Shown here: piece after piece, positions 14,738 to 41,768 of the stretch
Layout of the letters: each line of letters starts with the position of its first letter
How positions within the stretch are numbered: the stretch's first letter is position 1
IMG/VR virus record: IMGVR_UViG_3300021963_007958
Strand: one strand, 5' to 3'
Length of the DNA: 64,000 nucleotides
Source: a virus
Program-made: the position numbers and the translations under genes
The notes under the pieces: model-generated
Databases searched by the model: none
Told to the model about the DNA's origin: nothing
What the model saw: only the letters and a program-made list of their open reading frames with translations

Positions 14738-16138
14738 TTATATCTTTCCTAGGAACAGGTCGATTGATTTATATCGATAAGCAAGTTTATCCTCTTTAAT
14801 ACCTGGATTTTTTAGAGGTGCTTTTTTTCTATTGACTATCTCTTCAGGAAGGAGAGGGCCAAAAGTATCCTTCAAAATCTTTTTATCTTTTCTCCATTCT
14901 AAAGGAAGATGTAAAGCAAAATTAACTATCTCTAAATTCAAGAACGGATTTCTGAGTTCTAAAGTATGAGCCATCGACATTTTATCAAGTCTTGGCAGAT
15001 GATAGAAAGATAGCTCATCAAATATGTCAGATCCCTGTGAGTCATACTCGTGGATTCTCTTATATCCTCCAAATAGCTCATCCGCTCCATCCCCGCTTAA
15101 AACAATCCTATGATTACTATTTTCTCGGATAGCTTTGAATAGATGATATTGGGGAATGACAGAACCTAGATCGATTGGAGTTTCGTTCCAAATTTGATAG
15201 ATTTCTTGATTTAAATTTTCATTCATCTCATACTGAAGGAAATTTACTTTCTTGTTAAACTTCTCAGATAGGGTCTTTACAAATTCAGATTCTCCATTTT
15301 CTATGCTATACCAAGTGACATCAGATTCTGTAGATTCTAGAATGGCTGCAATAATGGATGAATCAAGTCCCCCGGAAATAAGAAGAGAAATTGGGTAGTT
15401 TTTAGAGATAAGCCTGTTCTTGACAGACTCAAACATTTTAGCCCATAGCCACTCCATGTGTTCCTCGTAGGATTTTCCAATCAATTGTGGGATTGGATGA
15501 TTCCAAAGCTTGTAATAGTCGGGGTAGGTCGTCTTAAATTCCGAACTATTCAGATTGTAGTAATAGATTGTATTAGGGAGGAATCTCTTAACATCGGTAT
15601 AAGGAGTTCTGTTATTAACATTATATCCCCATTTTTTAACCTCTGAGATGAAAGTGTGATCTATTGGACTTTGATTGTATGCAAGTCCTTTGATTTCAGA
15701 ACAAATTTCACCCCTCTCGTTATAGTAAAGGGGTTTCTTTCCTAGAGGATCTGTGAATGCAATCACATCCTGTGTTTTGGAATCATAAAGGGTAATTGCC
15801 CAGAATCCATCCCAGGTCTGAATGTGAGGGATAAACATTGCACAGAACATCTCAAAAGATCCTCCACGATAAACACTAAATAGATTGCAGAGATAATCGG
15901 TATCCGAAGAGTAGAACGATCTGTCGTAGTTGAAGATCTCCCCGTTAAACATCAGAAACATTCCAGGAGCAATTTCCTTAGGTTGATTCCAATCATCTCC
16001 ATCTGCTGTCTGAATAGGGAGTCTGTGGTGACATAAGAACACGCCATTCTTCTCGACCACTGTTTTCTCTATCCCTCTATGTTTGATCGCGTCTAGGCTT
16101 GCCTCAGATCCGTCTAACGTTAATAAAATTCCACACAT
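14738..16138 (-). CDS. asnB: asparagine synthetase B-like glutamine amidotransferase
   Basis: Ntn start MCGI, NGEIFN, LGKKPLYY, PP-loop SGGLDSS, SGDGADELFGGY, RLDKMSMAHTLELRNPFL. Confidence 0.85.
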   Translation of the reverse strand: MCGILLTLDGSEASLDAIKHRGIEKTVVEKNGVFLCHHRLPIQTADGDDWNQPKEIAPGMFLMFNGEIFNYDRSFYSSDTDYLCNLFSVYRGGSFEMFCAMFIPHIQTWDGFWAITLYDSKTQDVIAFTDPLGKKPLYYNERGEICSEIKGLAYNQSPIDHTFISEVKKWGYNVNNRTPYTDVKRFLPNTIYYYNLNSSEFKTTYPDYYKLWNHPIPQLIGKSYEEHMEWLWAKMFESVKNRLISKNYPISLLISGGLDSSIIAAILESTESDVTWYSIENGESEFVKTLSEKFNKKVNFLQYEMNENLNQEIYQIWNETPIDLGSVIPQYHLFKAIRENSNHRIVLSGDGADELFGGYKRIHEYDSQGSDIFDELSFYHLPRLDKMSMAHTLELRNPFLNLEIVNFALHLPLEWRKDKKILKDTFGPLLPEEIVNRKKAPLKNPGIKEDKLAYRYKSIDLFLGKI

Positions 16139-21535: not shown

Positions 21536-23242
21536 TTAAGCTAATCCACCAACTGGAACGTTTACGTAGAAAGTGAAGTAAAGAGTTTCTGGGTTGAAAC
21601 CTGCTTCTACTAGTGCGTATCTGCTCTTAACTGCGATCTTAGGAGACATAGTACCTTCAGAAATGGTTTGGATTGACTCCGCCATCATGTAAGGCATGAA
21701 CTTAAGACCTGGCTCGTCATCTCCACCTTTTCTACCGATACAAACTCTTGTGTCGCTGTATTGCATGTTTTGGTCAACATATACAGTCATACCAGCTAGA
21801 GAACCAACTGGGTAAAGAGTACCGTTATTCTGAGTTAGAGTGTTAGAGAATGGAGCAAAAGTGAATTGGCTGATGTCTTGCATCGCAGACGCTAGGTAAG
21901 CGTTAGTTACGATGAAGTTAGCAGGACCTCTTCTACCTCTGTTAGCTACAACGTTAGCAGCTGCTAGGATTCTAGAGAATAGTCTTCTCTGAAGAGTAGA
22001 CAAGTTCTCGTATCCACCGTTAGCAGGACCTGCTGGAAGAGACATAGTAGCTAGGTTGTCAGTCTTATCCATGTAAACTAGGGTGTTAGTACCAGTAGCA
22101 CCACCAAGAACCAAGTTCAAGTTAAGGTTTTGACCTTCAATTTGGTTGAAGTTGTAGCAGTTAGACCAACCTAGTTGGAATGCTCTTGACAAGATGTGCT
22201 TGTTGATAGACTGAGAAACTTCGTTAACAAGTGCGTTCTCGATCATAGAGATTACGTCGATACCGAACTGCTTGTTAAGATCTTGGATTTGCTCAGTTGT
22301 TACAGAAGCAGCAACTTGGAAAGTGTCAGCTTCTACGAACTTAGTGAAGGTTGTTAGACCCATTGAGTTGTAGTAAGTGCTTTCTGCAACTGATCTCAAC
22401 ATTGGGTTGTAAGTCTTCTGACCATTTACATAAGGACCTTGGAATGCTTGATCATCATAGAAACCAGCACCTGAGAAACCTTGGATGTGATCTTCTAGAG
22501 CTTTAACTAGTTGAGCAACACCTGCTGCGTTTCCGATGTCATTTGAGTTAACAGAAGTACCGATAAGAGCACCTGCAGTTACAACAGCAGCAACAGTTTC
22601 ACCTGCAGTGATAGCAGTAATTCTGAAGATTGGGTAGCCATCGATTCTTGAGTAACCAACGAAAGCGGTAGTGATGTAAGCACCAGCTGAACCAACTTGT
22701 GTGATGTAGTAAGTGCTTCCTACAGTCATAGCAGCAGCGGTAGATCCCATAGGAACCTTAATCATAGTAGGAGCAACTGCTAGAGCTTCAGCAGCTGTAG
22801 TTCCAACTTGGTTAGAATTAGGAGAAAGTTTACCACCTGCGTAAACGTAGTCTAGGTAAGAAAGAACTCCTGAAGGACCAGACATAGGAATAACTGGAAC
22901 GATGTCAAAACCAACAGTCTTCGCAGCAACTTGAATTGCCAATGGAAGAAGTGAAGGGAATTTGTCACCAGAACCTTGCCAGGTTGAGCTGTAGAAACCA
23001 GCGTTTGGAGAAAGTCCACCTACTGATCCAGCTTGAGTTGTTTGAGGGAATACAGGAGGTTGAACTGAACCCATACCGTTAACAACTGCTAGAGAGTTGT
23101 AAGCACCAGCTGATTCGTTCAATGAGTGGTAGTGGCAGTACTTAGAAAGCCATTGAGTTTTTGATGAATCGTTGATACCAGTCTTAGACTCGATGATAGG
23201 AGCCCAGGTATCGAAGATTTCTTTTTCGTTAATAAGTTTCAT
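21536..23242 (-). CDS. major capsid protein (T4 gp23-like)
   Basis: VPVIPMSGPSG, TTEQIQDL, EVSQSINK, RGRRGPANFIV, PGLKFMPY, PKIAVKSRYAL; follows the protease gene; strong codon bias. Confidence 0.92.
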   Translation of the reverse strand: MKLINEKEIFDTWAPIIESKTGINDSSKTQWLSKYCHYHSLNESAGAYNSLAVVNGMGSVQPPVFPQTTQAGSVGGLSPNAGFYSSTWQGSGDKFPSLLPLAIQVAAKTVGFDIVPVIPMSGPSGVLSYLDYVYAGGKLSPNSNQVGTTAAEALAVAPTMIKVPMGSTAAAMTVGSTYYITQVGSAGAYITTAFVGYSRIDGYPIFRITAITAGETVAAVVTAGALIGTSVNSNDIGNAAGVAQLVKALEDHIQGFSGAGFYDDQAFQGPYVNGQKTYNPMLRSVAESTYYNSMGLTTFTKFVEADTFQVAASVTTEQIQDLNKQFGIDVISMIENALVNEVSQSINKHILSRAFQLGWSNCYNFNQIEGQNLNLNLVLGGATGTNTLVYMDKTDNLATMSLPAGPANGGYENLSTLQRRLFSRILAAANVVANRGRRGPANFIVTNAYLASAMQDISQFTFAPFSNTLTQNNGTLYPVGSLAGMTVYVDQNMQYSDTRVCIGRKGGDDEPGLKFMPYMMAESIQTISEGTMSPKIAVKSRYALVEAGFNPETLYFTFYVNVPVGGLA

Positions 23243-23274: not shown

Positions 23275-25347
23275 TTAGAATTTTCCTTCGAGAGCTTCAG
23301 CAATCGATCTTAGATAATCGTTAGAATATCCAATAGGAGTTACTGGTGTCTCGTTGGTTTCGATATTTTCGTTCTCAACAAGTTTTTGAAGACCAAGATT
23401 TCTGCCAAGTTGACGAGTTGACCAGAAGTTTTTGATTTGGTAAGGAGTTTCTAAGTTGTAGAAGGAAGCTTGAGCAATCAAAGATTGTCTGTGTCCTTCA
23501 CTTAGAGATTCCCAAACCTGAGCATATTCTTCAGGAGCTTCGTCTACAAATTTGTAACCTGCGCTTGGTTTAGATTCTTCTTCGTTCAAGTTCTCGTTTA
23601 GAACTAGGTCTGCCTTTTGGGTTTGAGCAGGCAACTGGAATCTTTCAGCTGCTTTGTTTGTAAGGGTTTCAGTTTTTTGGGTTTGAACTGATTCTATTAG
23701 TGCGTCAATTTTGCTAGAAACTGTTGAGTAATCTCCTGCAAAACCTGACTCAAATAGACCTGCATTAGAAGCTAGGTCTGCTTGTTCGATTGCGCTCTCG
23801 TTGATTGAATCACCAAGAGAGTTGTTTACGCTTTCTGCAATATATTCAGAATAAGCGATGTTGTTTTTAACTTTTTCTGCTAGATAGTCAGAATAAGCAA
23901 TTCCTTTATTTAGGTTTTCAGCCAGATACTCAGAGTAAGCAATTCCTTTATTTAGGTTTTCTGCTACATACTCGGTGTATCCGATACCTTGATCTAGTTT
24001 TTCTGCGATATATTCGCTGTAACCGATACCCTGATCTACTTTTTCTGCTAGGTACTCTGAATAAGAAATTCCTTTGTCAAGATTTTCTGCAAGATACTCA
24101 GAATAAGAAATGTTGGTGTCTACTTTTTCAGCCACATACTCAGAATACTGGATTGACTCGTCTACTTTTTCTGCTAGATATTTAGCGTATTCTACAGACT
24201 TATCAAGATTTTCAGCTACATACTCCGAATAAGAGATTGATTTATCCACGTTTTCAGCAAGATACTTAGAGTAAGAAATATTCTTGTCCAAGTTCTCAGC
24301 CAAATATTTAGAATAAGTGATGCTGTTGTCTAGATTTTCTGCCAAGTATTCTCCATACTTAATAGCTCCGCTTAGAGTTTCTGCTAGGTAGTTAGAATAT
24401 TTTTCTAGTTTAGCAACTCTGTCTTCCATAGATTCAGTAGAAGTAGCAGAAGGACCGTTGTTGTAACCGTTACCAAGAGCAGGCATAGGCTTGTTGAAGC
24501 TCAATGCTTGACCTTCTTCAACTCTTTCTGATCTTAAACTAGCAATTTCAGCCTTCATGGCGTCCATTTCTTTCTTTAAGAACATTGTGTACTGGTTAAG
24601 ATCATCAGCACTTACAAATTCTCTGTTAGGGGTATTCTCCATAATAGTGGATTTATTTTTATCTTTGTTGATTATTTTTTTAAATTCTTCGTTGTCGTTG
24701 ACATTATATATCCTCAAAGAATCGCTATTTTTTAGTCCTAGTGATTCATTTACACATTCTAGACCATTAATAACGCTTTTTTGTCTCTTATATATAACTT
24801 CATCGTGTGAAAAACCAGCACTTTCGTATACTCTCTCAAGCTGAGCGTCCTGAAATCCAGGGTCTGCTACAAGATCATAAGTGAAGATTTTCTTGATTTG
24901 AACCTTTTTATCTGGTCCTACATTACCAGCAGCTCTAGAAGAAATAGAAAGAGGAACTCCTGCATCTACAAGTCTTTTTGCAATTTGTCCTGCTGGGGTG
25001 TCTAGTAATCTAACTTTAATTCCAATTGTTCTTCCCTCTCTGTCATGAGTTAGATCCTCGATGACGTGGGAAACATTATTTAAAGAAATATCAAACTTCT
25101 CTGGGTGATCTAACTCACCAACAAGTCTTTTTTGTTTGATTTTATCCTTTAGATAATCTAAATGCGGAAGGTATTCACCTTCTTCGTAGATACGATTGTT
25201 ATTGTTTTCTTTCCCGAACTGAGCAGCAATACCCTTAAGGATATACTCTTTTCCTTCAGAAGTCATCTCTTTGGATGCTTCTAGGATTTGATTCTGCTTC
25301 TCCAGAATGAAAACCATATTTTCGTTAAGTGTTGAAGTTCTTGACAT
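23275..25347 (-). CDS. prohead protease (gp21-like) fused to scaffold (gp22-like)
   Basis: NNNNRIY, LVGELDHP, SISSRAAG, TYDLVADPGF protease motifs followed by a coiled-coil repeat region. Confidence 0.9.
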   Translation of the reverse strand: MSRTSTLNENMVFILEKQNQILEASKEMTSEGKEYILKGIAAQFGKENNNNRIYEEGEYLPHLDYLKDKIKQKRLVGELDHPEKFDISLNNVSHVIEDLTHDREGRTIGIKVRLLDTPAGQIAKRLVDAGVPLSISSRAAGNVGPDKKVQIKKIFTYDLVADPGFQDAQLERVYESAGFSHDEVIYKRQKSVINGLECVNESLGLKNSDSLRIYNVNDNEEFKKIINKDKNKSTIMENTPNREFVSADDLNQYTMFLKKEMDAMKAEIASLRSERVEEGQALSFNKPMPALGNGYNNGPSATSTESMEDRVAKLEKYSNYLAETLSGAIKYGEYLAENLDNSITYSKYLAENLDKNISYSKYLAENVDKSISYSEYVAENLDKSVEYAKYLAEKVDESIQYSEYVAEKVDTNISYSEYLAENLDKGISYSEYLAEKVDQGIGYSEYIAEKLDQGIGYTEYVAENLNKGIAYSEYLAENLNKGIAYSDYLAEKVKNNIAYSEYIAESVNNSLGDSINESAIEQADLASNAGLFESGFAGDYSTVSSKIDALIESVQTQKTETLTNKAAERFQLPAQTQKADLVLNENLNEEESKPSAGYKFVDEAPEEYAQVWESLSEGHRQSLIAQASFYNLETPYQIKNFWSTRQLGRNLGLQKLVENENIETNETPVTPIGYSNDYLRSIAEALEGKF
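23815..24402 (-). repeat. 14 tandem 42-bp (14-aa) coding repeats, consensus SYSEYLAENLDKGI
   Basis: Counted directly in the translation. Confidence 0.9.
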
Positions 25348-27908: not shown

Positions 27909-28703
27909 TTATTCTGAATATATTCTGTCGTAAGCCTCCGAGATGATGTTTATCAACTTTTCTATATATCCGTCATTTCTAAGCTTCTTAAAGGCTAAGT
28001 TCCCGACAGAAAACTCCCCTCCTTTTTCCAGTCCCTCTTTCCTCATCTTGTGAATCTTTTCCTTTAGTTTGTTTGCCCTCTTGTAAAGAGATCTAGCATC
28101 TTTTGGAAGAGTCGTAGAAGAAATCAACTTATCCCCAAACTGATTTATGTCCTGCTCGATTCCATCGGCTTTTTTATAAACATCGTCCTCGTCTACAGAC
28201 GGGGGATCAAACTTAGGCTTTCTAATCCATTCATTGTTCATTAGAGAGAAAAGACCCGATGAAGTGTGGGGCTCTTTTGAATCCTGAAGGTAAACCTCAA
28301 CATCGTGACCTCTCATCTTAATGTCATGTCTGATATTCCAGACAAACCTAATTCCATCTACAGCAGCTTTTAGAATCTTCTTGGGGGAATTAACTTTATC
28401 AAAATCCACCAGAACATGTAGATCTATATCTGATAAATCCGTGTAGTTATAATTTGCTAGAGATCCAGTTAGTTGAATATCAACTATGGGTTTCTTTCCA
28501 ATTGTGTCGTTGAATTTTTCATAAAATTCCTCTGCGATCTTAAGGAGTTTCTTCCTAATTACAGGATCTAAAATCCACTTTTCTTTCTTCCCATCCTTGG
28601 AAACCTTTTTGGTCCAGAACTTTGGATTTAGCTCATCGTGATAAAAAGCATTGATCTGCTTTTCAACTAAGAAGTAATCTTTAAAACTTTTTACTGACTC
28701 CAC
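27909..28703 (-). CDS. pol-beta superfamily nucleotidyltransferase
   Basis: LTGSLANYNYTDLSDIDLH (GS..DxD) and third acidic residue in DVEVY; GTG start. Confidence 0.8.
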   Translation of the reverse strand: MESVKSFKDYFLVEKQINAFYHDELNPKFWTKKVSKDGKKEKWILDPVIRKKLLKIAEEFYEKFNDTIGKKPIVDIQLTGSLANYNYTDLSDIDLHVLVDFDKVNSPKKILKAAVDGIRFVWNIRHDIKMRGHDVEVYLQDSKEPHTSSGLFSLMNNEWIRKPKFDPPSVDEDDVYKKADGIEQDINQFGDKLISSTTLPKDARSLYKRANKLKEKIHKMRKEGLEKGGEFSVGNLAFKKLRNDGYIEKLINIISEAYDRIYSE

Positions 28704-28706
28704 AAA

Positions 28707-28745
28707 AAAGGATTATTTGGATTTTATATATCCAAATAATCCTTT
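28707..28745 (-). terminator. 16-bp perfect hairpin (terminator-like) containing the GATATATA promoter motif
   Basis: AAAGGATTATTTGGAT-N7-ATCCAAATAATCCTTT, ending in a T6 run directly before the GTG on the minus strand. Confidence 0.75.
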
Positions 28746-28765: not shown

Positions 28766-29464
28766 TTATCTAGAGACTTTCTTTAGAACGTCCATCACCG
28801 TGACAACGTCTCTCTCACAATACTCTTTGATTCTCTCGTGATCTTTATCGTTCCAATAAGTTCCATGAACCTGAGACCCATCAATATCTTCCTTTGGGGA
28901 GTCTATTCCGAGGGAACAAGCCAGGAGATCAAGTCCTAAGAACTTCTGAGACCAGCTACCAAAAGAAAAGAATTCTGCAGTGTCCAAGATTGGTATCTCC
29001 CACGGTTTCTTATCCCAAAGCTGAAGATTAGAAGGAATATTTAAACCTTTAAATATCATTTTTTTTCCAAGAAATGGAATGTCAAACATCTTGATGTTAT
29101 GGCCGCATATCTTCATACCTTTAGCAGAAGCATTAGATAAAACTTTAGCACTCTTTTCTAAGATATCAGTTTCGTCCTCACCGTAGAAAGAAGTCATTCT
29201 ATGAGATCCAGATTCATCCCAAACACCAAAAGAGACACAGACAACTCTACCAAATTCTGGTTCAAGCCCAGCTTTCTGTGAGTAAATCTCCGAATCGGTT
29301 AGATCTTCCATACCCGGGGAATTTCCTCTAAAGTATTTTGCTCTTCTCTCCCAAAGCTTTGCAAGTCTAGGATTCTCAAGGACCATGTCCTCGTGGGTTC
29401 TATACCCTCCTGCCGTTTCAACGTCAAAGTAGAGGATGTTTTTTATATCGTCTTTTTTTATCAT
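28766..29464 (-). CDS. DEDD 3'-5' exonuclease (PolB-exo-like)
   Basis: YFDVET, GHNIKMFDIPFL, YCERDV; start moved to ATG at 29464. Confidence 0.85.
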   Translation of the reverse strand: MIKKDDIKNILYFDVETAGGYRTHEDMVLENPRLAKLWERRAKYFRGNSPGMEDLTDSEIYSQKAGLEPEFGRVVCVSFGVWDESGSHRMTSFYGEDETDILEKSAKVLSNASAKGMKICGHNIKMFDIPFLGKKMIFKGLNIPSNLQLWDKKPWEIPILDTAEFFSFGSWSQKFLGLDLLACSLGIDSPKEDIDGSQVHGTYWNDKDHERIKEYCERDVVTVMDVLKKVSR

Positions 29465-29465
29465 C

Positions 29466-30257
29466 TTATTTTTTCCATTTAGGGTCAAACCAAAATCTTC
29501 TTCCGATGTTGTCCACTTCAGAAGACATTTCTTTATTTCCGTAGCACTTCATCCAGTCAGTCCAAGAACCAAGGGAAGTGTGAATCTCTAGACCTTGTGG
29601 GGTCTCCCAGGTGTAGAGATTTCCCCCTCCCAAGAGGTATGCTTGGTGGGGTATATCCCTACACAAGTTTAATAACATCTGTCCTTTAGGTCCTTGGATT
29701 GCATCTCTCGCAGGCTGGAAAGGATTTACATCTTGCAATCTGTGAACAATCTCTGCTCTCAGATAATTTCCGATTCCATTAAAATACTTTTGATTCATTA
29801 AAACCTCGTGGAGGGGCTTAGAGAATGCCGACTTATTAATATTGTCCATTACATTCTTAACAAATAAGTCATGCTCATTAACTGGGTCGGGACCTCTCTC
29901 CTTATTCCAATCATTAAATCCCCACTTCCCAAATCTTCTAACATCAACAAAAGAAAGAGTTGTCCCATCAGTTGCATCAAACATTAGATGAGAGTGTTTT
30001 GTCTCTTCCCCAAATGGGGTTAACTTAAAATACCCTGACATCCCCATTGTCATTAGAAGATGCTCAGTTCCTCCTTTGTGTTCCAGAAGAAGCTTAAATT
30101 CTTTTCCTCTGGAAACTGCAGAAATCTCAAATGTTTCTGGGTGGGGAAATAATTTTCCCTTGTGACTCGGATTCTTTCTGACTCTGGCGAAGGTTTTTCC
30201 TTTGCACATTTTATTGACGTAGTCAGCCGTCAATCTAACTTCAGCTAGTTCTGGCAT
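29466..30257 (-). CDS. nei: Fpg/Nei-family DNA glycosylase, NEIL1-like
   Basis: MPELAEV, RGKE, GMSG, FVDVRRFG, H2TH FNGIGNYLRAEI; no four-Cys zinc finger. Confidence 0.9.
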   Translation of the reverse strand: MPELAEVRLTADYVNKMCKGKTFARVRKNPSHKGKLFPHPETFEISAVSRGKEFKLLLEHKGGTEHLLMTMGMSGYFKLTPFGEETKHSHLMFDATDGTTLSFVDVRRFGKWGFNDWNKERGPDPVNEHDLFVKNVMDNINKSAFSKPLHEVLMNQKYFNGIGNYLRAEIVHRLQDVNPFQPARDAIQGPKGQMLLNLCRDIPHQAYLLGGGNLYTWETPQGLEIHTSLGSWTDWMKCYGNKEMSSEVDNIGRRFWFDPKWKK

Positions 30258-30283: not shown

Positions 30284-31171
30284 TTACTCTGGAACTTTAT
30301 TGATAATTATTGGCTTTAGGGATTTATTTTCTAGCATATATTTAACACATGCAAGATCTCTTTCCCCGCAATCTACAATAATATCAATCTCCAAATTAAA
30401 TGTTGGGATCCTATAGTGAAGATAGTCCGAAGGAGATGGACTAGAAGGAACCCCAAACTCGTCGCTAGACTCTGGCTCAGAGTGAATAAAGACTGGTTTA
30501 ACCCCAACTGGCCAGGTAGAAGAACTCAGAAATAAAGCCTCTCTAGAAGTTAATCCTCCGTTATTAAATTGGTGCGGGAGAAATCTAAAACATATTGGGG
30601 TTTTAGTAGTATAAAAAACTCCAGAAAGTAAATCTGTGACAGAGAAAAGACTTGGCTTTTCATCGTTCATAACAACTAATCTAGACGAGACCTCTTCAGA
30701 AAGAGAAGAAACTTCGGAACAAAATCTAGAAAGAGTCTCTTTTCTATTTCCATATGCACTTCCAACTCTAATTAAAACTGAAGGTCCTTTCTGCCCAATC
30801 ATTTCCAGAAATTCTGAAATCTTCTTTAGGATGTCTTTAGTCTCTAGAACAACCTCTGGAAGTTGGCTTCCGAGAAAATGAGTTTTACCTAAGAAAAAGA
30901 AAATTCTAGATTCCTTGAAAGATAGAAAATTTGAAATGATGTCAATCTTCTCTTGCTCTAAAGAATCCTCCTCAATTCGAGAAAAATCTATATCTCTAAA
31001 GTCGACGTTTATGGTGTCGACGCAGGTGATGTGAATCCCCCTGTGAATATTAGAATTAATATGAAGTATAATAAAGTCTAAGAATCGACCCAAAGATTCA
31101 ATCTTTTTATCTTCCCAGGACTTCATAGAGCCCACATAGCCTATTCTATGAGCTGTTCTATTTAAAAGCAT
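30284..31171 (-). CDS. UV-damage endonuclease UvsE-like protein, degenerate active site
   Basis: VGSAYGNRKETLSRF, RLVVMNDEKPSLFSVTDLL and PICF..PHQFN follow the UvsE pattern; start placed at ATG 31171 just downstream of the promoter motif. Confidence 0.7.
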   Translation of the reverse strand: MLLNRTAHRIGYVGSMKSWEDKKIESLGRFLDFIILHINSNIHRGIHITCVDTINVDFRDIDFSRIEEDSLEQEKIDIISNFLSFKESRIFFFLGKTHFLGSQLPEVVLETKDILKKISEFLEMIGQKGPSVLIRVGSAYGNRKETLSRFCSEVSSLSEEVSSRLVVMNDEKPSLFSVTDLLSGVFYTTKTPICFRFLPHQFNNGGLTSREALFLSSSTWPVGVKPVFIHSEPESSDEFGVPSSPSPSDYLHYRIPTFNLEIDIIVDCGERDLACVKYMLENKSLKPIIINKVPE

Positions 31172-31216
31172 ATAAGTTATATGCAATCTCCAAGACGGAG
31201 TTTCAATAAAGTCGAA

Positions 31217-32281: not shown

Positions 32282-32710
32282 TCAATCTTTCTCGATAGAT
32301 TTTAGCTGGATTGAAATCTCTTTAATCCAAGACTCATACTTCTGGGGGTAGAATTTCTTAAGGTCCGAAATCTCCCTTTTGGAAATTTCAAACCTTTTCA
32401 AGATGAAAGCTTCTGCATCTTCATAGTCTGAAAAATCTATCTTTTTATCTTCCTTACCTTCTTTCTTCTTAGTCTTCGTAAAGATCCAAGAAGGGGACTT
32501 TGAATAATAATTTGACATTGTCCCGTGCCACCAGTCGACCACGGGTGCGGGGGAAATCTTAGTATGGTTAAATTGATTGGCTTGAATTGGCCACTGGATA
32601 GACATGATTCTGTTGATCATAAAGAAGTTTCGAACTTTGTCGTTCTTACCTACTTCCTCCCAGTCTTTCTTCTTTTTAAAGATTGTTTTTATGACGTCGA
32701 ATAGTTCCAT
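32282..32710 (-). CDS. clamp loader small subunit (gp62-like)
   Basis: FFMINRIMS..ANQFN..W.FTK pattern; in the replication cluster with gp44. Confidence 0.55.
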   Translation of the reverse strand: MELFDVIKTIFKKKKDWEEVGKNDKVRNFFMINRIMSIQWPIQANQFNHTKISPAPVVDWWHGTMSNYYSKSPSWIFTKTKKKEGKEDKKIDFSDYEDAEAFILKRFEISKREISDLKKFYPQKYESWIKEISIQLKSIEKD

Positions 32711-33846
32711 TAAAAGTTAGCAAAAGGATCAAATGCCTTAGGAACCGATTGGGTTGTAGCCCATGAAGTTCCTTCTAATATCTTTACTCTGTCTATAGTG
32801 ATACTCTTCCTAGGGATTTCAATTCCACGGGAAACTTCACCATCACAATTAGTGATTACAAACTCCGGCATTACACTTCTGTCGAGCCACATTAGAGTAT
32901 AGTTTCTTAAAAGATTCTTTGTCACCTTCTCTCTGTTCTCTTTATTATCTACGTCTTTTAAAATTCTAAGAATAAATCCGGAAACCCAGGATAAGAAGTT
33001 TTGGTCTTGTAGCATGTCAATAAATCTAGAATCTTTCCATTCGGATTGATTAAGAGATTCAAGAATCTGTTCTGCTTTCTTGGGAGAAATCCCATTGAAC
33101 TTTCCATTGGGTGCTTGAACATACCAAACCCCGGGAACTGCATCACCTTTATCTCCAGTTAACATCTTATTGAAGACAAAGTCTCTTCTTCTTACTTCTT
33201 CTACGGTCACTTTCTTTAGGAACTCTTTAATCTTTTCCTTGTCCGGGGAAATTGCAGCTGTCATGTCGAAAATAGAAACAGATTCTGCCTTATTAACCCA
33301 GTTATCTTCCCATCCCGGAGGAACAGCTAAGATGTTATTCTTAGAATTATTGTTCCAGATGATAGTCCATCCTCTGTCATTGTGTCTAGCAAGCTGGTGC
33401 ATATCTTTATCACCGCTGATAATAATACAATTTTCACCAATCGAGTTGAAGTAGTCAGACCAATAGTAGAGAAGATCATCACCTTCTGCACCTTTTACTT
33501 TCGAAAATACAAATCCTTGATTCTCCAGTTGATGACCAAACTCTGTCATTAGATCAAAGAAGATTGTCCAGTCTACGGTTTCGTCTTTTACCCGGTTGGA
33601 CTTATATCCTCCGTCCTCGATTTCAACATCTTTTCTCCACGATCTGCTATCTGAGGTGAAGATCAATCTTCCACCTTGGGGAAGCAATTTGAGTCCAGCA
33701 CACAAGTCCGTAGCAACCTTACGGATGAACATTGCCTGTTCTCCGGGAGTACCGAGAACCTTAGAAGGGTCTTTTGCCCCGAATCCACCGAAGACTCCAA
33801 AGGTCTTATGGAAAATATAGTTTCCGTCTACAAGTATATTAATCAT
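32710..33846 (-). CDS. rnh: T4 RNase H-like 5'-3' exonuclease / flap endonuclease
   Basis: ILVDGN, SWRK, YKSNR, EGDD, SGDKDMHQL, LTGDKGDAVPG. Confidence 0.88.
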   Translation of the reverse strand: MINILVDGNYIFHKTFGVFGGFGAKDPSKVLGTPGEQAMFIRKVATDLCAGLKLLPQGGRLIFTSDSRSWRKDVEIEDGGYKSNRVKDETVDWTIFFDLMTEFGHQLENQGFVFSKVKGAEGDDLLYYWSDYFNSIGENCIIISGDKDMHQLARHNDRGWTIIWNNNSKNNILAVPPGWEDNWVNKAESVSIFDMTAAISPDKEKIKEFLKKVTVEEVRRRDFVFNKMLTGDKGDAVPGVWYVQAPNGKFNGISPKKAEQILESLNQSEWKDSRFIDMLQDQNFLSWVSGFILRILKDVDNKENREKVTKNLLRNYTLMWLDRSVMPEFVITNCDGEVSRGIEIPRKSITIDRVKILEGTSWATTQSVPKAFDPFANF

Positions 33847-34360
33847 TTTTTCTTATATAGAAATATACGTTCCCAATGTCTCCAATATCAGTAAAGTTTG
33901 GATCTTTTATTTCACAATCATAGTCAGTAAAATTTAGGAAATCTGCATAGTCTGCTTCCAGTCTTCTCTTGACATCATCAGCATCCCTTCTTCCTTCTAA
34001 CCTCTTTCTTCTGGTTTCCTCATCTATATTCAGATAAACAATTGTGGACTCTTCTCTGTCTTTCTTACTCAATTTTGCTATCCCGCCCGGGGTCATAATG
34101 AAAAGATTTGACCTGTTAAACTCGTCCATCGAAGTCCCATAAAACCAGTTATTAAAGAAAACCCCTTCATAAAAGTCTTCCGCCATTTCTGTTAATTTAG
34201 AACTTTCTATAAACCAATAATCCTTTCCATTCTCCTCCCCTTCTCTTATTGGCCGGGTGGTATGAGATATACAGTACTTAAATCCCTTTCCTACTAAAAT
34301 TTTTCTTAGATGATCCTTCCCGGATCCTCCCTTTCCTACTATAATTAATCTTTTTTTCAT
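33839..34360 (-). CDS. gmk: guanylate kinase-like
   Basis: GKGGSGKD, SHTTRPIREGEENGKDYWFI, WFYGT. Confidence 0.85.
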   Translation of the reverse strand: MKKRLIIVGKGGSGKDHLRKILVGKGFKYCISHTTRPIREGEENGKDYWFIESSKLTEMAEDFYEGVFFNNWFYGTSMDEFNRSNLFIMTPGGIAKLSKKDREESTIVYLNIDEETRRKRLEGRRDADDVKRRLEADYADFLNFTDYDCEIKDPNFTDIGDIGNVYFYIRKND

Positions 34361-34708: not shown

Positions 34709-35042
34709 CGTCTTCTTCCTCTAAAGATTCCTCGACAGTTTCTTCTGGTTGTTCCACCTCTATCTCGCTTTCCAGAAATTCAAACTTCTTCAAAGCTCTC
34801 TCTAGACTAGGGCAAGACCAAGCCCATTTTCCAAAGTCTTCATTAGCAGGAAAAATCTCCCTCTCATTTAATTGGATCCCAAATACAACTTTGGGTTGGT
34901 CGACTTTGATCTTAAAGACCTCATAGGCAGCAACATATCCGTCTTCCGAATCTGTTTGTTTATAGATTAGAGATTTAGTTCCTCTCTTTTCTAAAGTATA
35001 GAAGAAACCTTTTCTTCTGATTGTTTCTGGTAGTAGTTCCAT
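34701..35042 (-). CDS. hypothetical protein
   Basis: 113 aa ORF coupled to both neighbours. Confidence 0.6.
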   Translation of the reverse strand: MELLPETIRRKGFFYTLEKRGTKSLIYKQTDSEDGYVAAYEVFKIKVDQPKVVFGIQLNEREIFPANEDFGKWAWSCPSLERALKKFEFLESEIEVEQPEETVEESLEEEDDE

Positions 35043-35989
35043 TAGTCGACTAGTTTTTGAATTTGAAAAAATAAAGAAAGTAGAGAGACTACTGGGTCAA
35101 TTACTGTAGTTCTCTGAGATTGATGAGAAGCAACCAATACAATAGTGGCAGGGATAATCTTAGCCTTGTCTGGATGATTTTTTACTATCCAGTCGATGAA
35201 CTCTCCTCCTAAAGAAGTCATAACATCATCAACTTTAGTCGAGTATTGACCGACGAGGACCTGATAGTTATTTACAGGATCTTTGGAAGTCATTATCATC
35301 TTGTAAAGATCTTCATAAGACCAGTTTGCTTCCTTAACTTTGGCAAGATCTAGCTGGGTCACCCCTTCGATTGACCACGACTGGATTCTGTTTAAAGCTG
35401 ATCTAAAATCTGGAAAATAAGTCTTTTCAAATGCAGTCAAGGAATCGTCATCAATAGATATCCCAAGCTTTCCTAGAATCAATCTTACTCTGGATCTCCA
35501 TTCTTCCTTGATTAGTTCTTCTTCCTCTGAAGTTGAAGGGTCGAAATTAATGACCTCGAATCTACTTTGGATTGCATCTGGAACCTTATTAATATAATTG
35601 CACGTAGCAACGAATCTCGTGTTGCCTGCAAACTTTTCGATCGTTCCCCTTAGTGCTTTATAGAATTGATCTGAAGCTCCGTCAAACTCGTCTAAAATGA
35701 CTACCTTCTTGGAGGATTTTCCATCTAATACCGAGATATTAGAGCAGAAGTCGTTGATCTTGTTTCTGATCGTATCTACAGAACTTTCGTCGGATACGTT
35801 AATGAACATGTGAGGAAGATCCTTGGCTAGAATCTTAGCGAGAGTTGTTTTTCCGCATCCCGGAGAACCTGCTAGAAGGACGTTTTGATTCAGTCCTTTG
35901 TCTTCAAATAGAACACGGATTCTCGGTGGGAGGATCATGTGTCTTATTTCTTTAGGTCTTAATTTTTCTGTTAATAGATCTTGGATCAT
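35042..35989 (-). CDS. clamp loader AAA+ subunit (T4 gp44/RFC-like)
   Basis: EKLRP, GSPGCGKTT, ILDEFD, ATCNY, IQSRF, PDFR. Confidence 0.92.
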   Translation of the reverse strand: MIQDLLTEKLRPKEIRHMILPPRIRVLFEDKGLNQNVLLAGSPGCGKTTLAKILAKDLPHMFINVSDESSVDTIRNKINDFCSNISVLDGKSSKKVVILDEFDGASDQFYKALRGTIEKFAGNTRFVATCNYINKVPDAIQSRFEVINFDPSTSEEEELIKEEWRSRVRLILGKLGISIDDDSLTAFEKTYFPDFRSALNRIQSWSIEGVTQLDLAKVKEANWSYEDLYKMIMTSKDPVNNYQVLVGQYSTKVDDVMTSLGGEFIDWIVKNHPDKAKIIPATIVLVASHQSQRTTVIDPVVSLLSLFFQIQKLVD

Positions 35990-36032: not shown

Positions 36033-37373
36033 TTAGAACATCTTAGACATATCATCTGCCTGAGTCTTATCATTTCGAATCTCGATGAAGCGGGGTAAGA
36101 ATAAGCTACGTCCCCCGAATTTATCTGTGATTGGTTCGTTGTATTGAATTGCTGCAATCTTACCAATTAGAGAATCTGCATCTTGACTGAGTTCATGAAG
36201 GTCTTTATCAGTGAATCCAGATCCAATTCTAACCTCCAGAGTTCCACTGGCATCTTTACAGATGAATCCTCCAATGAATCCTTCTCTCTTTCCTTCTCCG
36301 GGAAACCATCCGGTAATCTCCAGGTCGCAGTCTTGAATCTGCTTTAGCTTCACCCAATTTCTGCTCCTTTTACACTCATAGACGTGATCTGCTGGCTTTA
36401 AAATAACTCCTTCCCCTCCCATTGAAACAATCAGTCCGTAGATCTTTTGAGTTTCCTCAATAGAATCTACTACCCATTGACGTGCCAGTTTTACTTTGGA
36501 ATCCTCTTTGAGGAACCCAAGTAGAAACTCGAGTTCTTGTCTTCTCTTGAGGAAAGGAACGTTGCCTTTTCCTATTTTTAATGTCTCCGATTTTTCGATG
36601 TCAAACACATTAAAGAGGAAATCTTTATCTATATCATTTGAAGCGGTGCCTTTTAGGATCTGAGTTACCTTACCAGATACAGATTTTCTATTTAGATCCG
36701 TTAATTCCCCGTCAAAAAAGACCTCGCTAGTTGTGTTAGAGTTGTGTAAAGCCTGAATCAGCTCGGACTCGATTCTAGAAAGTTTAGACTTGTCTAACTC
36801 ATTAAAAGCTCTAGTATAAAACTGAAATCCTTTTTCTCTGTCTCCTACTGCTATTACACGAACTCCATCATACTTTTCCTCGCAGTAGATTTTATCCCAT
36901 CCGGCTACTTCCTTCCGGTCATCAGAAGCTAGCATTACCGACGGATCGGGAATTAATTCTCTCCCTACCGCCTTGTTGATGAGTTTAGCCCCAATTCCAA
37001 TGTTCATTCTCTTTGTCAGAATCTTCATTAGAATTACTCTAAGAGCCATATCCTCAGCTAGATCTTTTTCATGTATGACGGAATTAATAAGAGCATTAGC
37101 TCTAGATCTCAAAGAGTCATTTGCAGCAGGAGCTTTTTTAAGATCCTCCACTAGAGACTTAAAAGTTTCAAACCCTGGAAATTCAGGGACATCTAGATTT
37201 TGAGATAACTCTAGCTTATGAAGTTTAGTTGTAATGAATGGATTAAAGCAGACATCTAAGATGTAAAGCATTTCCTCCGATAAATTCTCGGAAATTAATC
37301 TCTGTTTTTCTTTCTGGGATCCGTTTCCTTCCATGGATTCAACGGACAATAGGACTCTGAGTTCTTGTTTCAT
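36033..37373 (-). CDS. lig: ATP-dependent DNA ligase
   Basis: EEKYDGVR, FDGEL, EGVILK, WVKLK, GSGFTD, SLFLPRF..IRNDK. Confidence 0.93.
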   Translation of the reverse strand: MKQELRVLLSVESMEGNGSQKEKQRLISENLSEEMLYILDVCFNPFITTKLHKLELSQNLDVPEFPGFETFKSLVEDLKKAPAANDSLRSRANALINSVIHEKDLAEDMALRVILMKILTKRMNIGIGAKLINKAVGRELIPDPSVMLASDDRKEVAGWDKIYCEEKYDGVRVIAVGDREKGFQFYTRAFNELDKSKLSRIESELIQALHNSNTTSEVFFDGELTDLNRKSVSGKVTQILKGTASNDIDKDFLFNVFDIEKSETLKIGKGNVPFLKRRQELEFLLGFLKEDSKVKLARQWVVDSIEETQKIYGLIVSMGGEGVILKPADHVYECKRSRNWVKLKQIQDCDLEITGWFPGEGKREGFIGGFICKDASGTLEVRIGSGFTDKDLHELSQDADSLIGKIAAIQYNEPITDKFGGRSLFLPRFIEIRNDKTQADDMSKMF

Positions 37374-37411: not shown

Positions 37412-39010
37412 TTATAGAGTGAATGATCCTCCCTCAGCTTCTCCCTCTTTTCCACCTTCTTTTTTAGCTTTTTCTGCTTCTTTTGCTTCGTCTTCTTTAT
37501 AGACTTTATTCTTATCAAATTCGTCTCTAGACAAAGGAAGGAATCTTCTAATCAAGAAATCCTTGTCGAAGTAAGGTTTTTCTTCCTCTCCAACTTTCAT
37601 CTTGATTTCTCCTAGTGAAGTAACAAAGTCGGTTGCTTTAGTTAGGTGAGCCAAATCTAAAAGCTTTGAGAATTGATTTTCGCTATAGTAATCTAAACCG
37701 AGATTCGCCTTGAAGCTTCTGTCTTTAGAAAGCTCGGGAAAGTCTAAACACATCTGAATATAAAGGGGTTTAACTACTATCTCCTGGAAAATAGATCTAA
37801 GTCTAGTTAAGAATTTTTCAAACCTAATTTCATCTCTTTCAAGCTGATCGATTGAGATTTGATAGTTAGCAGGAGTTGCTCCTCTACCTGCAAATCTCGC
37901 ATATGGGATTTTAGAATCTAGTTTTAGCTTGTTATAGAAATAAATTACATTTTCCATTACGTTAAAGTCCGGACCATTTGCGTTTAGAACATCAATTTGT
38001 GGGGACTGTCCATCTTTCTCAGGAAACAGATAATTCTTATAAAACTGTATCTTGGGTGTTCCGTTAACCAGAAGCTCACCCGATGTGTCGTTAATACTAA
38101 CCTCTTCCTTATAAGAAGACATTAACTGACCCAGAGTTTGCATTGCTTTCTGTTGAGATTGGGTTCCAACCGGAATGACAAATTTCAATCTATAAGAAGC
38201 ATTCATTACGTTCCAGATAACTCTGGTGTTCTCCATTACTCTTAAAATGTTGTAAGATCTGATAAGTCGTTCAACGTAGCTAACTCTAGAAATAGAATTT
38301 CCCTTAGCGTAAGAAATGTAGATGATCTGTTCAGACTTTAATTTTCTAGAAAGTTGAGAGTCTTTAGGATATTGAATCCAAATCTGTTCAAAGGATCCGT
38401 CGGGAGCTTTCTCCGTATGGGGTTGGAGTGAAGTTGGATCGAGTTCTTTAAACCCAACTATCTTTTTACCGTCTGTGGAATAAACAATTTCAAAAGCAAG
38501 AAATCCATCGATCAAGAACTGCTTAAAAAGCTGCCAAGCTAAGTTGTTCTGTTGGAATGCATAGAGCATGTAAATAGTTTTAAAGTTCTCGTGAACTTTA
38601 TCTATGATTTTATCCTTCAGATCTATGTTATTTAGAAGTGGCTGGCAGAAGAAGTTTTTATCGTCATAGTTAACTGCCTCGTCTGAGATGGTTTCTAGAA
38701 TGAAATCGATCTCTCCGTTCAGTGCAAACTTTCTTAAAAAGTCCCTTTTACCTAAATAGTCCTTATCGAAATAAGCAATATATTTTCTTATTCTTGTATC
38801 CTGGTATCCAAGAGTCCAATAAAAAGCACTATCGTTGGTGAACCCATTTCCCTCTTCTGAGAACATCTGAGATTCAGTTTGCCCAATAGTCTGAGAATTA
38901 CGAATGACCATGTCTTCGTATTGCATTCCAAATTTACCAATTCTACTCAGATTTTTGTAGAGCTGGGTAATGAATCTATTCTGTGGGTTTGAATCTAAAA
39001 ATCCTGCCAT
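37412..39010 (-). CDS. portal protein, copy 2 (T4 gp20-like)
   Basis: FLIDG, SYVERLIRSYNILRVMEN, IPYARF, RDEIRFEKFLTRLR (gp20 RDE+KF.KF+.RLR motif). Confidence 0.88.
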   Translation of the reverse strand: MAGFLDSNPQNRFITQLYKNLSRIGKFGMQYEDMVIRNSQTIGQTESQMFSEEGNGFTNDSAFYWTLGYQDTRIRKYIAYFDKDYLGKRDFLRKFALNGEIDFILETISDEAVNYDDKNFFCQPLLNNIDLKDKIIDKVHENFKTIYMLYAFQQNNLAWQLFKQFLIDGFLAFEIVYSTDGKKIVGFKELDPTSLQPHTEKAPDGSFEQIWIQYPKDSQLSRKLKSEQIIYISYAKGNSISRVSYVERLIRSYNILRVMENTRVIWNVMNASYRLKFVIPVGTQSQQKAMQTLGQLMSSYKEEVSINDTSGELLVNGTPKIQFYKNYLFPEKDGQSPQIDVLNANGPDFNVMENVIYFYNKLKLDSKIPYARFAGRGATPANYQISIDQLERDEIRFEKFLTRLRSIFQEIVVKPLYIQMCLDFPELSKDRSFKANLGLDYYSENQFSKLLDLAHLTKATDFVTSLGEIKMKVGEEEKPYFDKDFLIRRFLPLSRDEFDKNKVYKEDEAKEAEKAKKEGGKEGEAEGGSFTL

Positions 39011-39019
39011 TTATCTTTT

Positions 39020-40639
39020 TTATGCTGGTGGGGCTTCTGCTGCTGCCGGTGCTGCTGCCGGTGCTGCTGCCGGTGCTGCTGGGGTAGCTCCTGCTGCCGG
39101 TGCTGCTCCCTCTTTTTTCTTCTCCTCTGCTTTCTTTCTAGCTTCTGCGTTTGCTCTGATATCGTCGCTAGTAAGACCCAAATAATTTTCAACTAGGTAT
39201 GGAACTGAGAAGAATCCTCCACCCGTGTCGTCGGTTAGAGTCATCAATTTATCAACAGATTCCTTTTTCTTTAGGATAATCTCCATTTCCTGATTTCTCT
39301 TAAATGGGTTATCCGAGACGTAATCAAGACCAAGTTGACTTTTAAACATGTAATCTTTCTCCAGTTCCGGGAAATCTTTACACATTTGAATCCACAGAGG
39401 CTTAATTAAAATGTCCTGAAAAGCAGTTCTAAGTCTATTGATAAACTTAGCAAATCTAATTTCCTGTTTGTCTAAACCCTCCGCTGCATTTGCATACTTT
39501 CCCATCGATCCCCCATCTGGACCATTAAATCTAGAATTAGGAACTTTAGATTCGTTAATCAGTTTGTCAAAAAAGTATGCTAAGGGTGCAGGGTCATTAA
39601 GGTTCGGCCCTACATTATTTAGAGGTTCAATAGTGGGGGTTCCGTTCACACCGGAAGGCATTAAGTAGTTTTTAAAGAACTGAATCTTCGGTGCTCCATT
39701 TACAAATAATTCTCCACTTTGATCGTTTAGGGAGATATCTTCTTTATAGATACTCATCAACTCTCCTAACGTCTGCATTCCTTTTTGTTGAGATCTAGTT
39801 CCGATTGGAACTGTCATCTTCATTCTGAAAGAAGCATTCATTACAGACCAAATAACCCTTGTGTATTCTATAATTCTAAGGATGTTATAAGGTCTAATAA
39901 GTCTTTCGGTGTAGCTGACTCTCGAAACTGTATTCCCCTTTGCATAAGAAATGTAGATAATCTGGGAGTCATATAGCATTCTTTTTCTCCTTGGATCTTT
40001 GAAATATTGCCACCAAACGTTCAGATAGCTTCCGTCATTTTGTTTTTCGACAGAAGGCATCAAAGTCATAGCATCGATCTCTTTGAATCCGATGATGTTT
40101 TTTCCTTTGTCGTCGTAGATAATTTCAAATGCAACATATCCGTCTACCAGGAATTGTCTGAAATACTGCCAAGCACTAATGTCGTCAGTGAATCCAAACA
40201 TGTCATACAATTTCTTGTAATTTTCGTTGATCTTATCGATGACTTTTTCCTTCAGTCCAGTTAGATTTAAGAAAGCAGGATATGCAAAAAAGTTATGAGA
40301 ATCGTATGTGATTGACTCGTCATTAACTACATCCAGGATGAATTCAATCTCAGGGTTTAGTGAAAATTTTCTAAGATAATCCCTTTTACCTTTGTAGTCC
40401 TTGTCAAAATAAGAAACATACTGTCTCGACGTGGTATCTTGTCTAGCCAGAGCATAGAGCATCGTCTCGTCCTCAATCATTCCTTTTTTGAGGAATGCTG
40501 CTTCGGTTTGACCGATGGCTTGAGAATTTTTAACCACCATGTCTCCATAGTTTAACCCAAAGTTACTTAGATTCTTTACTGAATCTCTAATTCTTTGGAA
40601 GATAGGACTACCTTGTGGATTTTCTAAAAAACCTGCCAT
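39020..40639 (-). CDS. portal protein, copy 1 (T4 gp20-like)
   Basis: FRQFLVDG, SYTERLIRPYNILRIIE, KVPNSRF, QEIRFAKFINRLR; Ala/Pro-rich C-terminal tail. Confidence 0.88.
   Translation of the reverse strand: MAGFLENPQGSPIFQRIRDSVKNLSNFGLNYGDMVVKNSQAIGQTEAAFLKKGMIEDETMLYALARQDTTSRQYVSYFDKDYKGKRDYLRKFSLNPEIEFILDVVNDESITYDSHNFFAYPAFLNLTGLKEKVIDKINENYKKLYDMFGFTDDISAWQYFRQFLVDGYVAFEIIYDDKGKNIIGFKEIDAMTLMPSVEKQNDGSYLNVWWQYFKDPRRKRMLYDSQIIYISYAKGNTVSRVSYTERLIRPYNILRIIEYTRVIWSVMNASFRMKMTVPIGTRSQQKGMQTLGELMSIYKEDISLNDQSGELFVNGAPKIQFFKNYLMPSGVNGTPTIEPLNNVGPNLNDPAPLAYFFDKLINESKVPNSRFNGPDGGSMGKYANAAEGLDKQEIRFAKFINRLRTAFQDILIKPLWIQMCKDFPELEKDYMFKSQLGLDYVSDNPFKRNQEMEIILKKKESVDKLMTLTDDTGGGFFSVPYLVENYLGLTSDDIRANAEARKKAEEKKKEGAAPAAGATPAAPAAAPAAAPAAAEAPPA
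39039..39107 (-). repeat. 12-bp tandem repeat encoding the (PAAA)n tail of portal 1
   Basis: gctgctgccggt repeated three times plus a partial copy. Confidence 0.8.
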
Positions 40640-41285: not shown

Positions 41286-41768
41286 TTATGGGCTTTTAAA
41301 TAGGAAATTCTCGTCTATAACTCCAAAATTATAGTCTCTTTTTAAAGCCCATTCCTTTGCCGCCTTAAATTTAGCCTGGTTGGTAATCCAAATTTGCATC
41401 TTTTGATTATATGCTTTTAATTTCGCAAGGGTTTCCGGCGGGGTTATCACAGGTTTTTTATATTGAGATTCGGGTTTAATCTCTACGATCCATTCGGCTT
41501 CAGTACCATCATCTTTTAGAACCCTCATGTAAAAATCCACATTATAGGTGTGTTCTTTTTTATCAAGGGGATTATAATAGGGAATTTGGAGAGGCTCTGA
41601 AGACCACTTTAGAATCTTCTCGTTGGTGTCACAATATTTACAAAATCTAAATTCCCAGGAGGATCTAAAGATAATGTTGTGTGGATCTCCAATATATTTG
41701 TCAGGATAAAGAGGTTCGTAAAGGCCTGACTTGTATAATCCATTTGGCTTTACTTTCTTAATCGACAT
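41286..41768 (-). CDS. head completion nuclease (T4 gp4 / TnsA-like)
   Basis: YIGDPHNIIFRSSWE, WSSEPLQIPY, YNVDF, VEIKP, NQAKFKAA. Confidence 0.9.
   Translation of the reverse strand: MSIKKVKPNGLYKSGLYEPLYPDKYIGDPHNIIFRSSWEFRFCKYCDTNEKILKWSSEPLQIPYYNPLDKKEHTYNVDFYMRVLKDDGTEAEWIVEIKPESQYKKPVITPPETLAKLKAYNQKMQIWITNQAKFKAAKEWALKRDYNFGVIDENFLFKSP

Follow-up and report, generated by a model that had tools for sequence, protein, structure and literature searches.

A NEIL1-type DNA glycosylase gene in a conserved repair and replication block of a T4-like phage

The stretch of DNA analyzed here (the window) comprises 64,000 nucleotides of the IMG/VR virus record IMGVR_UViG_3300021963_007958. Its ORFs, nearly all on the minus strand, are tightly packed, and its G+C content is ~37%. 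Pfam identified these genes of a virus particle in it:

21536-23242: major capsid protein gp23
23275-25347: prohead protease fusion
37412-39010 and 39020-40639, minus strand: tandem, full-length gp20 T4-type portal genes (Pfam 2e-60 and 3e-58)
56487-59855: tail sheath protein
59954-61762: T4-type large terminase

Because T4-type capsid, portal, terminase and sheath genes are all present, the window is a T4-like tailed phage (myovirus), as an earlier note made from the sequence alone had proposed in calling the DNA phage. Among the structural genes, just after the portal pair, lies a gene for a protein with a TnsA-like endonuclease N-terminal domain (41286-41768, minus strand; 6.5e-17), which may be a homing-type or mobile nuclease. 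Elsewhere, at 14738-16138 on the minus strand, an asparagine-synthase-like amidotransferase is encoded (Asn_synthase 6e-38 plus GATase domains).

The gene under study is that of a DNA glycosylase, with the following features:

29466-30257, minus strand: NEIL1-type Fpg/Nei DNA glycosylase/AP lyase gene (ORF of 263 aa plus stop; ATG start, TAA stop)
29922-30257, minus strand: N-terminal catalytic β-sandwich domain, residues 1-112 (Pfam Fapy_DNA_glyco)
30240-30254, minus strand: Pro2, Glu3 and Glu6, in the N-terminal domain
30102-30104, minus strand: Lys52, in the N-terminal domain
30039-30041, minus strand: Met73, in the N-terminal domain
29931-29939, minus strand: Arg107 and Phe109, in the N-terminal domain
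29739-29792, minus strand: helix-two-turn-helix (H2TH) DNA-binding motif, residues 156-173, with Asn164 and Tyr165 (invariant residues, model helix)
29484-29552, minus strand: zincless finger, residues 236-258, a β-hairpin with Arg253 and no Cys4 (PF09292, model strands)

The protein begins with MPELAEV, and all the glycosylase motifs quoted in the earlier note are present in the translation of 29466-30257: SRGKE (residues 49-53), GMSGYF (72-77), HSHLMF (88-93), the FVDVRRFGKW block (103-112), the long H2TH block (132-170) and the C-terminal block (235-257). The translation contains no CxxC pair, and its last 30 residues have a single Cys. Pfam placed PF01149 (Fapy_DNA_glyco) on residues 1-112 (2e-17, above cut-off) and PF09292 (Neil1-DNA_bind) on residues 232-258 (29.6 bits against a cut-off of 25), while the H2TH family scored weakly, at 25 bits, under its cut-off of 34.7.

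The glycosylase lies near the end of a block of co-oriented genes extending from 37373 to 28766. In order, the first half of this block contains an ATP-dependent DNA ligase, a clamp loader, two small ORFs, a guanylate-kinase-like kinase and a FEN-type 5'-3' exonuclease; the second half contains an ORF, a UvrB/C-motif protein, another ORF, a UvdE-like protein, the glycosylase and a 3'-5' exonuclease. The assigned features are:

36033-37373, minus strand: ATP-dependent DNA ligase (Pfam DNA_ligase_A_M 9e-21, OB_2)
35042-35989, minus strand: clamp-loader AAA+ subunit, gp44-like (Pfam AAA, Rad17, Gp44_lid)
33839-34360, minus strand: guanylate-kinase-like P-loop kinase (Pfam Guanylate_kin 6e-17; PHROG 1815 2.7e-34)
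32710-33846, minus strand: 5'-3' exonuclease/FEN, RNase H-type (Pfam 5_3_exonuc_N; syntenic)
30284-31186, minus strand: UvdE-like protein, directly upstream of the glycosylase (Pfam UvdE 1.7e-9)
28766-29464, minus strand: 3'-5' exonuclease, PolB-exo/RNase H-like (DNA_pol_B_exo2 1.2e-11; PHROG 25228 "3'-5' exonuclease" 1.5e-29)
28707-28745: perfect 16-bp hairpin ending the block (terminator-like scan)

The 3'-5' exonuclease is translationally coupled to the glycosylase, its ATG lying 1 nt past the glycosylase stop (junction TAA-G-ATG), and it is syntenic in 23 loci. After the hairpin comes a nucleotidyltransferase-fold protein (27909-28703, minus strand; weak Pfam NTP_transf_2, PHROG 36119 2e-46) that is kept with the block in 20 loci. 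A promoter scan of the block returned 19 sites against 20.9 in shuffled sequence, with no excess.

The entire block is kept in 23 fetched related contigs, whose glycosylases are ~51-86% identical to that of the window. Megablast of the locus against 50,697 GenBank phage records gave no match, and tblastn against the same records gave only seven, at 26-28% identity, to Listeria and Enterococcus phages, with no close relative among them. Related phage contigs with a glycosylase at 53% identity were found in a Saprospirales MAG (L083, 70 kb) and in a Flavobacteriaceae MAG (L084, 42 kb); the former shares synteny with the window across 14 genes, whereas the latter has another gene order, with a guanylate-kinase-like gene near the glycosylase. 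The binning of these contigs in Bacteroidota MAGs gives a weak hint of a Bacteroidota bacterium as host of the phage group.

The UvdE-like protein, kept in 22 related loci, matches Sulfolobus UVDE (3tc3) at 1.1e-15, and in that alignment its ligand motifs have R for H, M for E and R..P for D..H. Its metal ligands therefore appear to be replaced and, judged by these substitutions, it may be a catalytically dead damage-binding protein, so that repair activity cannot be assumed for each gene of the block. We considered this neighbor as a remover of 3'-phosphates and dropped it on account of the ligands. No 3'-phosphatase or PNK was found among the ORFs scanned in the 64-kb window.

When we searched all PDB chains with the window protein using HMMER, human NEIL1 matched with an E value of 3.3e-44, query residues 1-258 aligning with NEIL1 residues 1-282, a similarity that greatly exceeds chance, and the human NEIL1 segments that the earlier note had quoted appear letter for letter in the alignment to the NEIL1 chains. 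The best chain other than NEIL1 was T. thermophilus MutM (1.6e-12), followed by Mimivirus Nei1 (3.6e-9, aligned to residues 1-179 alone), further Fpg chains (from 1e-8 upwards) and E. coli Nei (0.16); up to E 1, no NEIL2 or NEIL3 chain matched. The window protein is NEIL1-type and not an ordinary bacterial Fpg/Nei.

Among the residues that are invariant across phage, eukaryotic and E. coli Nei/Fpg sequences in our alignment are P2, E3, E6, K52, G163, N164, E169 and R253; M73, R107 and F109 are invariant within the phage and eukaryotic NEIL1-type sequences. By position in the HMMER alignment, P2, E3, E6, K52 and M73 of the window protein correspond to P2, E3, E6, K54 and M81 of human NEIL1, and R107, F109, N164 and R253 correspond to R118, F120, N176 and R277. 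We take the roles of these NEIL1 residues, from published NEIL1 work, to be those of nucleophile, acid, void-filling triad, H2TH Asn and finger Arg. None of the aligned NEIL1-type sequences has the Cys-bearing segment, 8 residues long, that E. coli Nei and Fpg carry. The C-terminal tail of the phage glycosylase measures 5 residues, and those of the eukaryotic rows 29-383 residues.

The AlphaFold2 model of the glycosylase has a mean pLDDT of 91.7, with a predicted helix at residues 164-173 and C-terminal hairpin strands at 245-248 and 254-257. When this predicted fold was compared with the PDB by Foldseek, the best 50 matches were all human NEIL1, with TM scores of 0.85-0.87. Together with the HMMER E value and the PF09292 score above its cut-off, this bears out the earlier claim of a full-length likeness to NEIL1 that includes the zincless finger. 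The sole uncertain part of the model is a loop at about residues 211-230 (pLDDT 57-62), which contains Asn213, at the position of K/R242 in the lesion-recognition loop of human NEIL1; Tyr215 corresponds to Y244. With Asn213 in place of K/R242 and a loop of such low confidence, the substrate preference of the phage enzyme may differ from that of human NEIL1.

Two observations could be taken to mean that the glycosylase is a pseudo-enzyme, or a mere DNA-binding or AP-lyase protein: its UvdE-like neighbor has replaced metal ligands, and its own H2TH score falls under the Pfam cut-off. This is very improbable, however, as all catalytic and DNA-contact residues checked are conserved, the fold is predicted with confidence, and dN/dS against four orthologs (L001-L004; 66-86% identity) is 0.03-0.12, with synonymous sites near saturation. 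The phage protein combines NEIL1-type family membership with intact residues, the expected fold, purifying selection and conserved synteny, and we consider it probable that this T4-like phage encodes in it an active bifunctional DNA glycosylase/AP lyase of the NEIL1 type.

The most likely function of such an enzyme would be the base-excision repair of oxidized bases in phage DNA. Its substrate range, elimination chemistry and cooperation with its neighbors we infer from the family, as follows. Removal of the initiator Met would free the N-terminal Pro2, which, aided by Glu3 and Lys52, would attack C1' of a flipped-out damaged base to form a Schiff base, while the gap left in the helix would be filled by Met73, Arg107 and Phe109 and the phosphates would be held by the H2TH motif (Asn164) and by Arg253 of the zincless finger. 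β,δ-Elimination would then leave a one-nucleotide gap with a 3'-phosphate. Oxidized pyrimidines, formamidopyrimidines and hydantoins are the likely substrates, in duplex DNA and possibly also in DNA that is single-stranded or forked. Products of the neighboring genes (coupled 3'-5' exonuclease, FEN, clamp loader and ATP-dependent ligase) could complete the repair together with the phage polymerase. Because the ORFs scanned in the window included no 3'-phosphatase and one neighbor looks inactive, the pathway downstream of the glycosylase is uncertain.

The same chemistry could serve another purpose, such as acting on single-stranded or fork DNA formed as an intermediate of replication or recombination, on modified or defense-damaged bases, or in the processing of host DNA. 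The gene lies among replication genes for a clamp loader, a FEN and a ligase, and human NEIL1 has a preference for bubble and fork substrates and interacts with PCNA and FEN1. In 74 of the 124 fetched IMG/VR loci from other phages, moreover, the NEIL1-type gene is found by a guanylate-kinase-like nucleotide-metabolism gene rather than in the repair block, the two being within ~1-3 kb of each other and mostly adjoining. (In the window the guanylate-kinase-like gene lies in the same block, 3.6 kb from the glycosylase; an example from elsewhere is L023:6855-7334.) Against another purpose, no base-modification genes were found beside the glycosylase in the window, there is no sign of modified DNA, and the tail that holds the partner contacts of human NEIL1 is absent from the phage protein. 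We regard such a purpose as unlikely, and the suggestion in the earlier note that the enzyme repairs modified phage bases finds no support in the window. Repair of oxidized bases is the function that we prefer.

The NEIL1-type family is widely spread. A collection of proteins clustered at 90% identity gave 2399 matches at E 1e-5 or better, of which the best 120 are metagenomic proteins of 171-288 aa (most of them 250-290), often named "endonuclease VIII-like 1" by JGI. An exhaustive search of representatives at 50% identity gave 162 clusters at E 1e-30 or better, and from ~1e-47 down tail-less proteins of ~250-300 aa are interleaved with longer ones of 350-690 aa. By their cluster names (the look-ups returned names for eukaryotic members only), the long proteins are eukaryotic, from Branchiostoma, a crab, a tardigrade, the sponge Sycon, the choanoflagellate Mylnosiga, three amoebozoans (Planoprotostelium, Endostelium and Mastigella), the euglenid Ploeotia, and Paulinella. 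With members in Amoebozoa, a choanoflagellate, a euglenid and Paulinella, NEIL1 is not confined to animals, and the "metazoan NEIL1" of the earlier note was right as to NEIL1 and too narrow as to metazoan.

Among prokaryotes and viruses, the ESM Atlas labels of the nearest clusters are 86-95% viral, mostly Uroviricota, and at least 405 IMG/VR contigs, the longest of 318 kb, encode relatives. A scan of prokaryotes, with one genome per species, found full-length NEIL1-type genes of 38-44% identity in many single-cell genomes and MAGs of Marinimicrobia (SAR406), on contigs of up to 643 kb, and in MAGs labeled "Poribacteria":

L106:5001-5783, L097, L103 and L105: Marinimicrobia NEIL1-type genes
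L085:5001-5813 and L086-L092: "Poribacteria" MAG NEIL1-type genes

The Marinimicrobia genes are flanked by PhoD, a metallophosphatase, HupE and a luciferase-like oxidoreductase, and the "Poribacteria" genes by sulfatases, RlmL, an L,D-transpeptidase and a GFO oxidoreductase; these copies are chromosomal. All remaining bacterial matches are ordinary Nei/Fpg of at most 30% identity at E 1e-11 or weaker, leaving a clean gap. Automatic annotation already names the phage and Marinimicrobia members, and a literature search, to whose coverage most subscription journals did not belong, returned no paper dealing with NEIL1-type enzymes of phages or of Marinimicrobia.

In every tree, the NEIL1-type family was split from 10-14 bacterial Nei/Fpg outgroup sequences with support of 99-100; the trees were built without NEIL2, NEIL3, plant and fungal Fpg and Mimivirus sequences. 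Phylogeny, which the earlier note had named among the checks on its reading, places the window protein with NEIL1 against bacterial Nei/Fpg, and branching within ordinary Fpg/Nei was not seen. The protein pairs with L004 (100/100) within a clade of 21 sequences, namely 19 phage rows including the window and the two MAG contigs (99/98). In an 80-row tree restricted to sequences of known origin (IQ-TREE, C20 PMSF, careful search), a single clade without eukaryotes (100/97) unites all 42 sequences from phages and bacteria, and within it the Marinimicrobia and Poribacteria genes form one group (100/98) nested among phage sequences. One IMG/VR contig, L238, falls together with the Marinimicrobia genes.

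These trees already contradict a recent capture of the gene from an animal or another eukaryote, and with it the reading of the contig as eukaryotic or giant-virus contamination, to which the identity of ~40-46% to eukaryotic NEIL1 might otherwise point. The window protein lies deep in the 42-sequence clade, its nearest relatives are syntenic phage contigs, the window carries T4-type capsid, portal, sheath and terminase genes, and the protein has neither the eukaryotic C-terminal tail nor the post-H2TH insert found in many, though not all, eukaryotes. We find a recent capture, or contamination, scarcely credible.

The position of the root is another matter. In the 80-row tree, the outgroup joins two long eukaryotic rows (Mylnosiga and P0230) through a branch of 1.93 substitutions per site, by which attachment the eukaryotes would be a grade. 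Eukaryote monophyly was not rejected by the AU test (p 0.64), and the tree constrained to it was better than the unconstrained quick tree by 4.96 log-likelihood units. In a larger tree to which 31 tail-less representatives were added (most tail-less representatives at 50% identity carry no assigned origin), all 21 eukaryotes form one clade (SH-aLRT 99) nested in a weak tail-less grade with backbone support of 34-88, and a 150-row FastTree gives the same picture, with the eukaryote clade at 98. Three tail-less representatives branch first in two trees; viral contigs scanned from these three gave none above 37% identity. We tried the post-H2TH insert as a rooting character, and it failed, as Endostelium, Mastigella, Sycon and others are short-form like the phages. 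Across the trees the outgroup branch measures 1.4-1.9 substitutions per site, and its attachment point shifts with sampling.

What is robust is that the window encodes a NEIL1-type enzyme outside eukaryotic NEIL1 and that the phage and bacterial copies are intermixed. Because the root moves with taxon sampling, the donor and the direction of transfer cannot be read from these trees, although better sampling leans towards a phage/bacterial origin of eukaryotic NEIL1. A tentative reading, which may well be wrong, is that eukaryotic NEIL1 goes back to a single ancient capture, from a marine phage or bacterial lineage, of a tail-less NEIL1-type glycosylase, with the phage family as the ancestral reservoir and not a derivative; its basis is the single eukaryote clade (98-99) among tail-less sequences in the two better-sampled trees, on a weak backbone. 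Of the phage/eukaryote transfer that the earlier note had envisaged, the kinship with NEIL1 stands, while a private event does not, given relatives on at least 405 IMG/VR contigs and chromosomal genes in Marinimicrobia and "Poribacteria".

A published phylogeny of Fpg/Nei describes NEIL1 as a metazoan clade ("MeNeil1") whose only viral relatives are the Mimivirus enzymes, with a zincless finger (PMC3188539). Our analysis places the nearest kin of NEIL1 in a large family of uncultured tailed phages and two marine bacterial groups, a family far nearer to human NEIL1 than is Mimivirus Nei1, and this offers a concrete basis for inquiring into the origin of NEIL1. The family would also supply compact, tail-less and probably soluble NEIL1-type enzymes for structural and substrate studies, and, if the proposed function is right, it would be evidence that large phages encode their own base-excision step for oxidized bases. 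The gain from this window alone is modest. What it contributes is the conserved setting in a repair block, the chromosomal members in bacteria together with their flanks, and the dependence of the root on sampling.

Of the known systems, eukaryotic NEIL1 (human 1TDH, 4NRV, 5ITQ-5ITY, 6LWA-6LWR and 8FTJ) has a glycosylase core that is colinear with the phage protein over its full length at ~35-46% identity, and both have the Pro2/Glu3/Lys set, Met/Arg/Phe as void fillers, the H2TH motif and a zincless finger that bears the conserved Arg. The phage protein differs in lacking the disordered C-terminal tail of ~100 aa or more and the post-H2TH insert present in many, but not all, eukaryotic NEIL1 sequences, in having Asn where human NEIL1 has K/R242, and in belonging to a separate phage/bacterial clade. 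Mimivirus Nei1 (MvNei1, L315; PDB 3A42/3A45/3A46/3VK7) has been published as a viral NEIL1 ortholog with a zincless finger (PMC3188539). Like the phage protein, it is a virus-encoded Fpg/Nei with such a finger; its distance from the window protein, however, is far greater than that of human NEIL1, and it comes from a giant virus of amoebae, whereas the window gene comes from a tailed phage. E. coli Nei (PDB 1K3W) and Fpg/MutM share the superfamily, the catalytic N-terminus, the H2TH motif and the finger Arg with the phage protein, but are only 22-23% identical to it and have a Cys4 zinc finger, which it lacks. The NEIL1-like genes of Marinimicrobia (SAR406) and "Poribacteria" encode tail-less, full-length proteins that are 38-44% identical to the window protein and fall in the same clade as the phage proteins; they are flanked by ordinary cellular genes, whereas the window gene resides in a phage.
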